From Colwellia sp. (GTDB lineage: Bacteria; Pseudomonadota; Gammaproteobacteria; Enterobacterales; Alteromonadaceae): a stretch of 64,000 nucleotides of DNA. Location of the stretch: NCBI GenBank assembly GCA_013215655.1, contig JABSOX010000024.1, positions 3,446-67,445 on the forward strand. The letters are read 5' to 3'. Under the pieces are notes generated by a model. It was not told the DNA's origin. It searched no databases and saw only the letters and a list, made by a program, of their open reading frames with translations. Both the position numbers and the translations under genes were made by a program. Below, in pieces: positions 1 through 4,231 of the stretch. Every line of letters begins with the position of its first letter. Position 1 is the stretch's first letter.

Positions 1-2499
1 TTAATTAGTGATTTTTATCCAGTTGATGTTGATTGCACCGCCTAAAAAATCTAAGCGTAGAGTTTGCTCTCCGGCAACTAAATCAATCATAGCTGTTTGA
101 GAAGTCCATTCTTGCCAACCACCAGTATCAGCTACCACTTGGCTATCAACGACAACGCCACCCACCGAGGTTTCAAAGCCATCACTTCCACCAGAACTGG
201 CTAAGCGGTATTCAATGTTATAAGTGCCATCGGCAGGAATATTCACGGTATAATCTAAAAAGGTGCCTGTGTCGATCCAACCAGCATTTAGACCACCACC
301 TTCATCGGCAGTCTCTTCTGTTTGTACATTGTCACTAGCAGCATCCCAATCTTCCGCTTCAAGGTGAATTTCAAATGCAGGAGGGAAAAGTTCAAACCAG
401 TTAATATTGATAGCACCGGCGACAAAATCAAAACGCACTAAGTGTTCACCAGCAGTTAACAAAAATTCACCAGACGATTGTGTTATCCACTCTTGCCAGC
501 CACCCGTATCTGCTACAACTTGGGCATCGACCTCAGTTCCATCAATAGAAAGAGTAAAGCCATCACTGCCACCAGAGCTAGCTAAGCGATAATCTATGCT
601 ATAAGTACCGTCAGTAGGCACTGTAATGATATATTCTAAAAAGGTGCCTGAATCGATCCAACCAGCATTTAAGCCACCGCCTTCATCAGCGGTTTCTTCT
701 GTTTGTACATTGTCACTAGCAGCATGCCAATCTTCCGCTTCAAAACGAATTGGCGCAGGGCCATCAGGTTTATCAGCTTCTTGAACAGCAAGCGGAGCTT
801 GTATACAGCTTTCATTTGAAATGCAGCTCAATTGAATGTTATCTAATTGGAAATGCACACCACCGTGAAATTCCACCACAAGAATAGTACCAACATTACT
901 GGTATCCAGTGGCAATGGATCACCCTCAACAACCCCAGGAATCCAATTCAACCAGTCAGGCGCAAGGAAAGGCGTATCAACAAAATCACTTACTGGAATG
1001 TTATAAGTAACCCAAGTATCAAGCTCAAGTTCAGCAACATTCCAAGTAAACATCCCCATATAAGGCCAACCTGTTTCCATTCTTATGTCGAGTGTTTCTG
1101 TTAGGGTATTCGCGCTGTCGATATACATATCGAAACTTAATAAAGCATCGCGACCTATAAATTCAATACCTGGCGCAGCGATATTAATGTTGGCATCACC
1201 GTCAGGGTGACTGACATCAATCACTAAGCCATGATCACCTTCAAGTGTTAATATTTCGATAACAGGAGCATTGTAATTACCGATAGAAAGCTCAGTGATT
1301 TCATCTGTGTGATGCCATGTTAAAGGAGTTAAGTCTGAAACTTTAACGTCATCTTTATCAAAGAAGCCATCAGTAAAAATTTCAGTAACTTTAGCACCGA
1401 CTGATTCAATTCGATCTGAAGCGGCTTTGTTTATTGATTTGTTAACATGAGAAGCGCAGTTTTCTACGTTAGTTTCAATTAACGGATCACAAGACCAAAC
1501 TTTGACATAGTCAATCAGCATTTCTGCAATGGGTTCAATACCATCGACTGCTAAATTAATCACAATTTGCATGTTTTGATTGAAAGGACCCGCATTGTCG
1601 ATTACGACTTCTTCACCGTTTAAGGTGTAAGCCCAAGTATTTAGTGGGTCAACTGTATGTATATGAATACCATCGACATACCAGCGAATCTGATCGGGTC
1701 CCCATTCAATTGCATAGTTATGAAACTCTGTTTTAGCGCCAGCAACAGTATCACTATTAAAGTTAACGCCGTTAGTCAGCCCTAATCCATAATGAGCTCC
1801 AGCGATAATGCCACCAGAGGTGACTTCCATCGCTGTGAGTGTATTTTCACCATCATAGATGTCAGCCATGGGTAATAAGCCGAACACCGAAAATATATCG
1901 TTGCCTTCAGGGAGTTGAATACTGGCTTCGATACGACCAGAGGAGATGCCATTAAGAGCTTTTACTGAAGAAGTAGTATCTTCTTGTGCAGTAATAACAA
2001 GCACGCCATCAGCAATACTTGCATTGACCCCTGTCCACACGCTTTCATCGAGTTCAGCTGTATCAAACTCATCACTCAATACCAGACCCCAACCGTAGTC
2101 CTCAATAGATTCAAAATCATTGGCAATATCAAAGGTCAGCAGTGCGGTATCAGTTTCACCTGTAGACGATTGAGTAGCGACATAAGTTATGCTATCGATA
2201 CCAAAAAAATCAGCACTTGGTGTATAAATAAAACTACCATCGGCATTAAATTCCAAAGTACCATTTTCTACACCACTGCCCTCAGCAACCGCAAAAGTTA
2301 GTCCTTCACCAATATCATTTTTACTAACGTCACCTTCAACAGGATCGCCGTCTTCTACACCCTCAACAATATCTCCTACAGCAAATAAATTACGGACTAC
2401 ATTTTGATCGGCGTCCCCACCACCGCAGGCCGTTAGGGACGTTGCTACTGTCAGTGACAGTGCGATAAGTAGTTTGTTTTCTATCATCGTAAACCCCAT
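1..2499 (-). CDS. Multi-domain lipoprotein: cadherin-like/Big_9 repeat, degenerate GH16 (laminarinase-like) domain, putative CBM-like middle domain, two C-terminal CBM6 modules
   Basis: Lipobox SLTAC; GTLEFNADGSFIYTP..F.G.DS.TY cadherin-like motif; GH16 scaffold LVLSDEFD, GRIEA, FHNYAIEW, WYVDG, NLAV, IDYVKVW; two EAED...GWI...YRLAS...VADTGGWQ.W...NINW CBM6 units; TAA stop at 1-3; start could be 2487. Confidence 0.85.
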   Translation of the reverse strand: MGFTMIENKLLIALSLTVATSLTACGGGDADQNVVRNLFAVGDIVEGVEDGDPVEGDVSKNDIGEGLTFAVAEGSGVENGTLEFNADGSFIYTPSADFFGIDSITYVATQSSTGETDTALLTFDIANDFESIEDYGWGLVLSDEFDTAELDESVWTGVNASIADGVLVITAQEDTTSSVKALNGISSGRIEASIQLPEGNDIFSVFGLLPMADIYDGENTLTAMEVTSGGIIAGAHYGLGLTNGVNFNSDTVAGAKTEFHNYAIEWGPDQIRWYVDGIHIHTVDPLNTWAYTLNGEEVVIDNAGPFNQNMQIVINLAVDGIEPIAEMLIDYVKVWSCDPLIETNVENCASHVNKSINKAASDRIESVGAKVTEIFTDGFFDKDDVKVSDLTPLTWHHTDEITELSIGNYNAPVIEILTLEGDHGLVIDVSHPDGDANINIAAPGIEFIGRDALLSFDMYIDSANTLTETLDIRMETGWPYMGMFTWNVAELELDTWVTYNIPVSDFVDTPFLAPDWLNWIPGVVEGDPLPLDTSNVGTILVVEFHGGVHFQLDNIQLSCISNESCIQAPLAVQEADKPDGPAPIRFEAEDWHAASDNVQTEETADEGGGLNAGWIDSGTFLEYIITVPTDGTYSIDYRLASSGGSDGFTLSIDGTEVDAQVVADTGGWQEWITQSSGEFLLTAGEHLVRFDFVAGAININWFELFPPAFEIHLEAEDWDAASDNVQTEETADEGGGLNAGWIDTGTFLDYTVNIPADGTYNIEYRLASSGGSDGFETSVGGVVVDSQVVADTGGWQEWTSQTAMIDLVAGEQTLRLDFLGGAININWIKITN
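4..741 (-). repeat. Intragenic tandem duplication of a CBM6 module (381 bp period)
   Basis: tgtcactagcagcat at 330 and 711; protein EAEDW[H/D]AASDNVQTEETADEGGGLNAGWID[S/T]GTFL repeated 127 aa apart. Confidence 0.9.
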
Positions 2500-2553
2500 G
2501 TCTCATATTTCTCATGTTTTTCATATTATTATATGGAACCTAGTATTGTTCTC

Positions 2554-2566
2554 AGCGGTAACCGCT
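2554..2566. promoter_or_regulatory. Palindrome AGCGGT-A-ACCGCT, candidate operator upstream of the GH16-like gene
   Basis: Perfect 6 bp arms, GC-rich in an AT-rich spacer, about 55 bp upstream of the start; regulator unknown. Confidence 0.3.
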
Positions 2567-3272
2567 TTAGAATATACCTACAGCTCTCTACTTTCGTTAT
2601 GTGCTATTCATTTGGCATAAAAGATAAGTTATCCAATTAATAACACTTTATCCTTTTTAGAATAGTGCTCAATTCATGTCGTCCTGTTGAATAACTCGAA
2701 CAAAAAAATAGTCATAAACCATGTGTTTGAGTAAATGTAATTATAATGGACACCTTATAAATAAAGGCTTACCAGCTATTATCGATTTTTTTAGTTTTTT
2801 AACTAAATTACAAATAATCGCTTGATACACTTATGCCATCCGTAAAGTTTTATGTTGTTAAGTGCAAACTTGGGAATAATAACCTTAGTTTTTTTTGCAA
2901 AGGAAATAGGTTTTCCGTTATTTAAATAAATGTGACAGATGGATGAGGTAAATTAATTTTTGCAAAAACAAAAAACGAACCAGTTATGGTTCACCTGTGA
3001 GCTTCTTACTTTAGCTAAGTTTCGATCTCATTTAGCTTCTCCTATAACTTAAAACAGTCATAACAGTTTGTAATTTACAGAGCGATAATGAACTTGAATA
3101 TTCAAATAAAATAGAGTTAAATAGCCGTCCTTCGTAGTTGATTTTTATCAAAACTATATAGCTGTAAGGATTTTAAAAAATTTGGCAGGCTATTAATTAT
3201 CTATTCACTGCATTAATTAGCCGCATCAAAATAAGGAAACTATCTGCTGTAATTAGCATTTACCGCGAATGC

Positions 3273-3364: not shown

Positions 3365-4231
3365 ATGAATAATTTAAAAATAAAAAAATCACTTATCCCA
3401 TACTTATCTTTGGCAGCGATTATGGTTGCCAGCGCTAGTTTTTCTAGTGCCAGTTTTGCGAGCGATATTACCCACAGTGTTAGAAGTAATGCTGAGCAAG
3501 CAGATAGTTCAGCAAACTATTTCGAAATTGGCATAATGTATGCCATCGGCTACGGGCCGTCTTTTGGTGAAGATGGCGAGTGGTCGAATACCGATCCGGT
3601 TATTAATGGTAGTTATACTTGGAACAACTTTTTTATTGAATCCTATAGTGAAAGTGGCAACGGCATGGCTGTTGGCTATAACGCCTTTAGTAATGATAAT
3701 TGGTCGTTCGACTTCACGGTGACCACTGACTGGTTCCAATATAACTACGACAATGACGGTCGTTATGCGCTTCTTAATCACGAAGAAGACCTTAACGAAC
3801 TGACTATTGGTGGTAGACTTACTGGTTATATCGGCAATAACATCGTGCAATTTGCCATCAATCAGGATGCAACTGGCGAAAATAATGGTACCACTATTTC
3901 AGCCTTGATTGGGCGAAGCTGGCAAGTAAGAAATTGGAACTTTCATGGCATTATCGGTGCAGAATACGCGTCTGCTAAACTTAATGATTATTATATCGGA
4001 GTTTCACCAGAAAAAGCGTCATATTATACTGGCCTAGATGCTTATGAAGCAGGTGCTAGTGTCAGCTTTAGTACCGAATTTGGCGTTACCTACCCGATCA
4101 CAGAAGACTGGGTATTCAGAGCTACTGGCCGAATTGCCACTATCCCTAATGAAGTTACCGATAGCCCTTATTATGTCAACAAAGACTCAGTAGCTACTTC
4201 ATTTCGTACTAGCCTTAGCTATGTATTTTAG
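3365..4231 (+). CDS. MipA/OmpV family outer membrane protein
   Basis: Signal peptide, amphipathic beta strands, YY.GV...A..Y.AG motif, C-terminal LSYVF beta signal. Confidence 0.8.
   Translation: MNNLKIKKSLIPYLSLAAIMVASASFSSASFASDITHSVRSNAEQADSSANYFEIGIMYAIGYGPSFGEDGEWSNTDPVINGSYTWNNFFIESYSESGNGMAVGYNAFSNDNWSFDFTVTTDWFQYNYDNDGRYALLNHEEDLNELTIGGRLTGYIGNNIVQFAINQDATGENNGTTISALIGRSWQVRNWNFHGIIGAEYASAKLNDYYIGVSPEKASYYTGLDAYEAGASVSFSTEFGVTYPITEDWVFRATGRIATIPNEVTDSPYYVNKDSVATSFRTSLSYVF

Follow-up and report, generated by a model that had tools for sequence, protein, structure and literature searches.

The window analysed here is a stretch of 64,000 nucleotides of Colwellia sp. (assembly GCA_013215655.1, contig JABSOX010000024.1, positions 3,446 to 67,445 of the forward strand), and it opens, on the minus strand, with a gene for an 832-residue lipoprotein in which, judging from the alignments, a domain of glycoside hydrolase family 16 (GH16) has lost its catalytic machinery. 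The gene for a TonB-dependent receptor follows it on the same strand, to the left of the window. An earlier prediction, made from the letters of this DNA alone (the original prediction), had described a lipid-anchored protein composed of a cadherin-like domain, an inactive GH16 domain, a carbohydrate-binding module (CBM)-like domain and two CBM6, and the Pfam matches and predicted fold agree with this order (Big_9 immunoglobulin (Ig)-like domain, GH16 fold, CBM-like beta-sandwich, CBM6 and CBM6). In window coordinates, the features of the gene and its product are:

1–2499, minus strand: complete lipoprotein gene, 832 amino acids, the sole long open reading frame over the site in the open reading frame list and its translation; stop codon at 1–3.
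ATG ending at 2487, minus strand: alternative start of the lipoprotein gene at Met5, giving 828 amino acids.
2425–2499, minus strand: signal peptide, from the sequence, with the lipobox L-T-A-C (Cys25) at 2425–2436.
2131–2382, minus strand: Big_9/cadherin-like Ig domain, residues 40–123 (PF17963, 46 bits against a cut-off of 23.6).
1474–2118, minus strand: GH16-fold pseudo-enzyme domain, residues 128–342 (PF00722, 50.6 bits against a cut-off of 22).
1879–1893, minus strand: F-S-V-F-G in the place of W-P-A-F-W, from alignments, with both cleft tryptophans gone.
1822–1851, minus strand: degenerate catalytic strand G-E-N-T-L-T-A-M-E-V, from alignments and from column counts over 49 family members.
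766–1473, minus strand: CBM-like beta-sandwich domain, residues 343–578, from the predicted fold, edged by the invariant cysteine pairs C337/C348 and C559/C565.
391–747, minus strand: CBM6 copy 1, residues 585–703 (PF03422).
7–360, minus strand: CBM6 copy 2, residues 714–831 (PF03422).

The database cluster representative that is 100% identical to the lipoprotein has 828 residues, the length obtained from the alternative start. The lipobox was found in 18 of 20 related loci, Cys25 is invariant, and a glycine occupies position +2 after the lipidated cysteine. The Ig-like domain, on which the Cadherin_5 and cadherin-like families score slightly under cut-off, is probably a stalk, and the two CBM6 copies together reach 145 bits with PF03422. 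The region singled out by the original prediction (1490–2100) corresponds to residues ~134–337 and lies within the GH16 match.

By family and fold the domain belongs to GH16, since it matches the PF00722 profile and is modelled as a beta-jelly-roll. Its AlphaFold model has a predicted local distance difference test (pLDDT) score of 86.8, and the structures that it resembles most are those of GH16_3 laminarinases, with a template modelling (TM) score of ~0.75. Two attributes of a GH16 enzyme, namely the catalytic E-x-D-x(-x)-E motif and an aromatic platform with its cleft loops, are both missing from the lipoprotein. In alignments with the intact GH16 of GH16-CBM6 proteins and with laminarinases of the PDB, the canonical G-E-I-D-I-M-E corresponds to N219-T220-L-T222-A-M-E225, with T220 in the position of the nucleophile glutamate, T222 in that of the aspartate, and E225 as the acid/base glutamate. 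The PDB alignment with 3iln is shifted and places E218 under the nucleophile, leaving a threonine at the aspartate position and an alanine at the acid/base position. A complete catalytic triad is thus absent by alignment in either register. Five cleft segments are also deleted from the domain in the alignments: the GWGNNE-x-QYY loop (a deletion spanning 24–33 alignment columns), the YTSARL strand, the GWx triplet before the motif, the loop after the motif and the GGxWPG loop.

This loss is common to the whole family. Among 49 distinct homologues the full triad was found in none, the nucleophile position being occupied by alanine (19), serine (15), threonine (3), valine (3), glutamate (2), arginine (2), glutamine (2) or methionine (1); the aspartate position holds no aspartate in any of the 49, and the acid/base position is a glutamate in 19. 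The claims that the original prediction had made for this domain are borne out: the GH16 scaffold is present, by profile score and laminarinase-like predicted fold, positions 1822–1851 encode GENTLTAMEV on the minus strand, the E-x-D-x-x-E motif aligns to TLTAME (window 1825–1842), WPAFW has become FSVFG, and the GWGN-E-QYY and GG-W-PG loops are gone. The comparison of homologues that it had suggested agrees as well: the nucleophile and aspartate have been lost across the clade, with no triad in 49 of 49 even though two keep a glutamate at the nucleophile position.

The residues expected of a CBM6 binding site, i.e., a cleft-A aromatic pair, an asparagine and a glutamate, are present together with the profile match in both CBM6 copies. 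In copy 1, E589, W668 and N698/N700 are invariant wherever a member has the residue, with an aromatic at position 614 in all members but one; in copy 2, the same holds for E716, W795 and N824/N826, and position 741 is always aromatic. The closest CBM6s of solved structure are beta-glucan binders (CmCBM6-2, the CBM6 of ZgLamC and BhCBM6). Glycan capture by the CBM6 pair is, in terms of residue conservation, well supported, whereas capture by the dead GH16 cleft is not supported by the residues found there. The middle domain (residues 343–578) has neither a Pfam match nor a PDB sequence match, and its model is a beta-sandwich (pLDDT 84.6) whose best matches are CBM11, CBM30, the N-terminal CBM-like domain of GH50 agarases and the C-terminal domain of ExoP; its Foldseek matches include the surface glycan-binding protein (SGBP) SGBP-B of B. 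uniformis (7k44).

The receptor gene encodes 1022 amino acids and lies ~160 bp downstream of the lipoprotein gene, in the part of the contig (C83 in our numbering) that precedes the window, whose first base is base 3446. The receptor matches TIGR01782 (TonB-Xanth-Caul) with 608.5 bits against a cut-off of 310, contains the PF07715 Plug and PF00593 barrel domains, and gave no match with the SusC family model. The two genes have no minus-strand terminator between them, a strong one with a 10-bp stem being located past the receptor, so that in this genome the lipoprotein and receptor genes look like a two-gene operon. One promoter candidate was identified:

2528–2555, minus strand: sigma-70-like promoter match (10/12), from a consensus scan, directly upstream of the start codon; weak evidence, as promoter-like sites in the region are not above the shuffled expectation.

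We also noticed a terminator-like hairpin with a 10-bp stem (window 2973–2996, minus strand) within the 860 bp that separate the lipoprotein gene from a divergent MipA-type operon; it may shield the promoter of the lipoprotein gene from transcription coming from upstream. The contig ends, 220 bp past the receptor, in a short dispersed repeat (L167:1-165, contig bases 1–165), made of two ~37-nt copies ~100 nt apart, with copies of 75–97% identity on dozens of contigs; it is probably an element similar to repetitive extragenic palindromes (REP) or miniature inverted-repeat transposable elements (MITE) that breaks the assembly. The original prediction had taken the lipoprotein gene for the first of a polysaccharide locus continuing to the left, with a TonB-dependent receptor gene to be looked for downstream. 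That receptor gene is there and the locus does continue, but a terminator and then the contig end come after it, and the hydrolases that accompany the pair in relatives were not found in the assembly.

The linkage of the two genes is strict. In all 17 related loci with enough flanking sequence, an orthologous receptor gene (63–88% identity) starts 50–165 bp past the lipoprotein gene, and a receptor gene in this position occurs in none of the loci of the sister clade described below. The dead-GH16 domain was detected in eight of 400 genomes of the same GTDB family (three of 59 genera) and in none of 300 other genomes sampled across the order. Receptor orthologues (at least 68% identity) were found in exactly those eight genomes, always adjacent, and in none of the other 392, the next-best receptor matches in the 400 genomes having at most 48% identity. 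In genome G606 (C2:4304790-4310064), the receptor match is interrupted by six stop codons and the lipoprotein frame has only 373 residues, and both genes look degraded, as in a joint decay. Given the co-occurrence across genomes and the state of G606, the pair seems to be gained, lost and apparently decaying as a unit. A full lipoprotein–receptor pair, 61% and 71% identical to its gammaproteobacterial counterparts, was also observed in L003 (JBNMPD010000030.1), a contig binned as a metagenome-assembled genome of Flavobacteriales, which would reflect either mis-binning or cross-phylum transfer.

Genes for a GH5+CBM6 protein and a GH30 come after the pair in most full-length related loci, with one locus also having GH3 and GH16, and in another relative a GH81+CBM56 gene is located upstream of the pair. 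The catalytic domain of the relatives' GH5 matches exo-1,3-beta-glucanases (E ~1e-20 to 1e-13) and their GH30 is closest to GH30_1. Predicted laminarin loci of bloom-associated Gammaproteobacteria are clusters of GH3, GH16, GH17 and GH30, sometimes with GH5, GH81 and CBM6 (PMC8371827), and the neighbouring genes of the relatives point to a laminarin-type beta-glucan as ligand of the pair. In the five related loci for which Pfam tables of the called genes were available, no SusD-family domain is listed. A gene for a 1363-residue ThuA/GSDH/Malectin/Fascin protein separates the receptor gene from the GH5+CBM6 gene in Thalassotalea sp. HSM 43 (L001:15822-19913).

For the clade as a whole, a search of 5.8 billion proteins gave 34 clusters at E <= 1e-61, with the full Pfam domain set in all except one truncated cluster; their named sources (Alteromonadaceae, Pseudoalteromonas and Thalassotalea) are annotated as 'carbohydrate-binding protein' or 'hypothetical protein', and genome and metagenome scans added members in Porticoccaceae and SAR92. 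With a profile of the GH16 domain, 1.84 billion representative proteins yielded five full representatives above 195 bits, then a gap, with the rest at or below 165 bits; among the best 70 matches, in which the motif was checked, G-E-[ILV]-D-I-M-E is kept below the gap save in short fragments and three proteins. In these three, P0065, P0067 and the third GH16 domain of P0096, the catalytic residues were lost independently and in differing ways (G-Q-I-N-I-L-E, G-Y-L-E-I-V-N and G-E-I-D-I-V-N, respectively); they are kin of the active sister clade and retain the cleft loops.

Maximum-likelihood phylogeny unites the 16 pseudo-enzyme domains in one group, with 100/100 support and a long stem. Their closest relatives are the metagenomic loci L099-L110 (29–34% identity), an uncharacterised sister clade placed within or near the GH16_3 laminarinases, whose lipoproteins share with the pseudo-enzyme the lipobox, an Ig-like N-terminus, the same CBM-like domain directly after GH16 (with a weak match to PF18559 Exop_C in the sister-clade copies), a clade-specific insertion in GH16 (W-x-S-Y-Y-Y there, L-N-T-W-A-Y here) and a cysteine that comes after V-D-Y-V-R-V, past the last strand. 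Unlike the pseudo-enzyme, they have E-[IFVA]-D-I-M-E and all cleft loops intact, C-terminal Exop_C-type domains instead of CBM6, and no receptor gene downstream, and are predicted to be active, endo-acting beta-glucanases. Because of the shared traits, the pseudo-enzyme seems to have originated from a surface-anchored endo-beta-glucanase by a single inactivation.

We hypothesize, with moderate confidence, that the lipid-anchored protein binds glycans without catalytic activity and acts together with the TonB-dependent receptor of the adjoining downstream gene. Its N-terminal lipid would anchor it on the outer membrane, with the Ig-like domain as a stalk, and the CBM6 pair, possibly together with the middle domain, would capture a laminarin-type beta-1,3/1,6-glucan by its chains or their ends and keep it near the receptor's entrance, ready for uptake. 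The GH16 domain would derive from a surface laminarinase whose catalytic residues and cleft loops were lost once, in the ancestor of the clade, and would now be a folded, non-hydrolytic module serving as a spacer, as a docking surface for the receptor or as a remodelled binding face. The fold, the clade-wide catalytic loss, the purifying selection considered below, the conservation of CBM6 residues and the strict receptor linkage come from sequence and modelling; surface exposure, the ligand and physical contact with the receptor are what we infer in addition. On the whole, the evidence supports the non-catalytic glycan capture that had been proposed for the protein from the start; the conserved CBM6 binding residues speak for it and the variable positions of the dead GH16 cleft do not.

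Several observations weigh against this reading. Among the 49 members, the three old active-site positions are among the most variable of the GH16 domain and the cleft tryptophans are lost; since the positions facing the old active site vary, the dead GH16 may bind no sugar, and it probably does not bind glucan via the ancestral cleft. This particular protein has a glutamate at both 218 and 225. Outer-membrane lipoproteins of Gammaproteobacteria, sorted by the Lol system, face the periplasm by default, and we know of no surface-export signal for the 832-residue lipoprotein. The relatives' GH5+CBM6 and GH30 are not present in this assembly, in which tblastn gave only CBM6-level matches, and because this genome is without them the ligand assignment rests on other genomes. 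The possibility that these hydrolases lie just past the contig end was dropped on account of the same CBM6-level matches and of the repeat that ends the contig.

A more specific arrangement, which we regard as possible but hold only tentatively, is that a classical, non-SusC transporter has in the lipoprotein an obligate co-receptor, with the dead GH16 docking on or capping the receptor and the CBM6 pair feeding it beta-glucan. Among the closest known systems are the TbpB-TbpA and LbpB-LbpA pairs of Neisseriaceae and Pasteurellaceae, in which the lipoprotein catches the ligand and is co-transcribed with the receptor gene. Like here, the lipoprotein gene stands in them directly upstream of a dedicated TonB-dependent receptor gene, and the pair described here is, as in that type, inherited jointly (17/17 loci; 8/8 genomes against 0/392). 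The two differ in that TbpB-TbpA binds an iron-carrying protein and here a glycan is predicted, in their unrelated folds, and in the physical docking, which for the present pair is putative. If true, the co-receptor would be a convergent gammaproteobacterial counterpart of SusC/SusD or TbpA/TbpB, made from a former laminarinase.

A rival reading concerns the orientation of the protein. Were the protein located on the inner leaflet of the outer membrane, facing the periplasm, it could bind oligosaccharides that have passed the receptor, as a retention or hand-over factor. This would be the default for Lol-sorted gammaproteobacterial lipoproteins and would suit the glycine at +2 and the lack of a known surface signal, and the receptor linkage is compatible with both orientations. 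We consider it a real but less likely alternative: the closest kin are GH16 lipoproteins, endo-acting and equipped with a stalk and CBMs, a build typical for a polymer met outside the cell, CBM6 and Ig stalks are characteristic of extracellular carbohydrate-active enzymes (CAZymes), and the order of lipoprotein and then receptor is that of surface co-receptor pairs such as TbpB-TbpA. Past the lipidated cysteine (window 2398–2424, residues 26–34), we noticed a tether formed by a glycine run and nearly invariant clade-wide, (G(n))-D-A-D-x-N-V-V-R. In Bacteroidota, acidic residues soon after the lipidated cysteine constitute a surface-export signal.

The role of the GH16 domain itself may be a minimal one, i.e., that of an inert folded spacer between the stalk and the CBMs, which would then carry all the activity. 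The free variation of the positions on the old catalytic face and the loss of cleft aromatics are what would be expected of such a spacer, and non-binding spacer domains are common in SGBPs, in which Ig-like spacers have been described (PMC7974029; 10.1101/2023.09.07.556657). We regard this reading, too, as a real but less likely alternative, since the ratio of nonsynonymous to synonymous substitution rates (dN/dS) of the domain is 0.12–0.18 in pairs with a synonymous divergence (dS) of 0.18–1.0, as calculated with our own Nei-Gojobori script, and many invariant polar and aromatic residues do not occur in active GH16s; also, a smaller Ig domain could substitute, yet no member has lost the GH16 domain. 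The clade-invariant residues without a counterpart in active GH16s are N219, G-L-G after H-Y, N248 and the L-N-T-W-A-Y loop, and they may mark a new functional surface. The mean pairwise identity of the GH16 domain is 59%, against 58–67% for the other domains (63–67% for the CBM6s). From the dN/dS, this level of identity and the confident laminarinase-like model, the domain appears to be a folded module under purifying selection. A decaying relic was considered for it and rejected, given the dN/dS and the conservation across the clade.

That the GH16 domain is still a hydrolase or transglycosylase working with non-canonical residues in an opened cleft, e.g., E218 and E225 (two residues wider than E-x-D-x-x-E), is very improbable: even though both are glutamates in this protein, the 3iln alignment sets E218 under the nucleophile, and the GH16 fold is intact and under selection, position 218 is a glutamate in 19 of the 49 homologues, both positions are acidic in only 13 and neither is in 10, the aspartate position is never an aspartate, the substrate-binding tryptophans and loops are lost, and there is no other conserved carboxylate pair on the cleft strands. 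As a substitute catalytic pair, E218/E225 was rejected for its lack of conservation (13/49).

A non-catalytic, lipid-anchored glycan-binding protein acting with a TonB-dependent receptor recalls the SusE/SusF and SGBP-B proteins of Bacteroidota, which have in common with the lipoprotein the lipid anchor, an Ig-like stalk, tandem beta-sandwich modules, the absence of catalysis and an adjoining gene for a TonB-dependent transporter in a glycan locus. The original prediction had drawn the likeness to SusE/SusF, and it stands as an analogy of role but not of descent or partner: there is no sequence homology (no Pfam SusE/SusF match), the protein comes from a gammaproteobacterium, its partner is a classical receptor (TIGR01782) rather than one of SusC type and is not accompanied by SusD, the lipoprotein gene precedes that of the transporter, and one module is a dead glycoside hydrolase. 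ZgLamC of Zobellia galactanivorans (CBM6-GH16_3), whose structures rank high among the matches of the lipoprotein in both sequence and fold, and the Cellvibrionaceae GH16-CBM6-CBM6 glucanases likewise combine a laminarinase fold with laminarin-type CBM6; they are, however, active, with an intact motif, and differ in domain order and lipid anchoring.

Catalytic loss within GH16 is also known. The beta-glucan recognition proteins (beta-GRP) and Gram-negative bacteria-binding proteins (GNBP) of insects and other invertebrates (GH16_4) keep, like the lipoprotein, a GH16 fold without catalytic residues as a non-enzymatic module, but they are metazoan immune proteins, are not monophyletic, have not undergone wholesale loop deletions, and have no lipid anchor, CBM6 or transporter partner. 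A GNBP is defined as a metazoan GH16_4 with an N-terminal CBM39; the lipoprotein is bacterial, has no CBM39 match and has its nearest structures in GH16_3. About 9% of GH16_4 members are without one or both catalytic residues, and in bacterial GH16_3 such loss is rare (0.7%) (PMC6827312). Literature searches, including full text, returned no prior description of the clade or of an inactive bacterial GH16 as a binding protein. Surface glycan-binding lipoproteins as such are well known in Bacteroidota.

Gammaproteobacterial glycan loci were described in a 2026 paper as having classical receptors and no SusD-like proteins, apart from acquired fructan SusC/D pairs (PMC13000452). This raises the question of how their receptors obtain polymeric substrate. 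The clade is a candidate for the missing capture component in Alteromonadaceae and Porticoccaceae/SAR92, which participate in the carbon turnover of algal blooms. It would also be a clear bacterial case of a glycoside hydrolase that became a conserved pseudo-enzyme in a single event and whose active sister proteins can serve as a reference. The domain scores above the Pfam GH16 threshold and, therefore, profile-based CAZyme surveys likely count these genes as GH16 laminarinases, overstating hydrolytic potential.

A separate locus was identified on another contig of the same genome (C17; L166, 1-12148), with a paralogous receptor, 37% identical and cut by the contig start. It also includes an intact lipoprotein GH16 (E-L-D-I-M-E), an ExoP-like GH3, two tryptophan-halogenase-like genes, SapC, Cupin_8, DUF6445 and a polysaccharide deacetylase, and from this gene content we read it as a laminarin-type beta-glucan locus.

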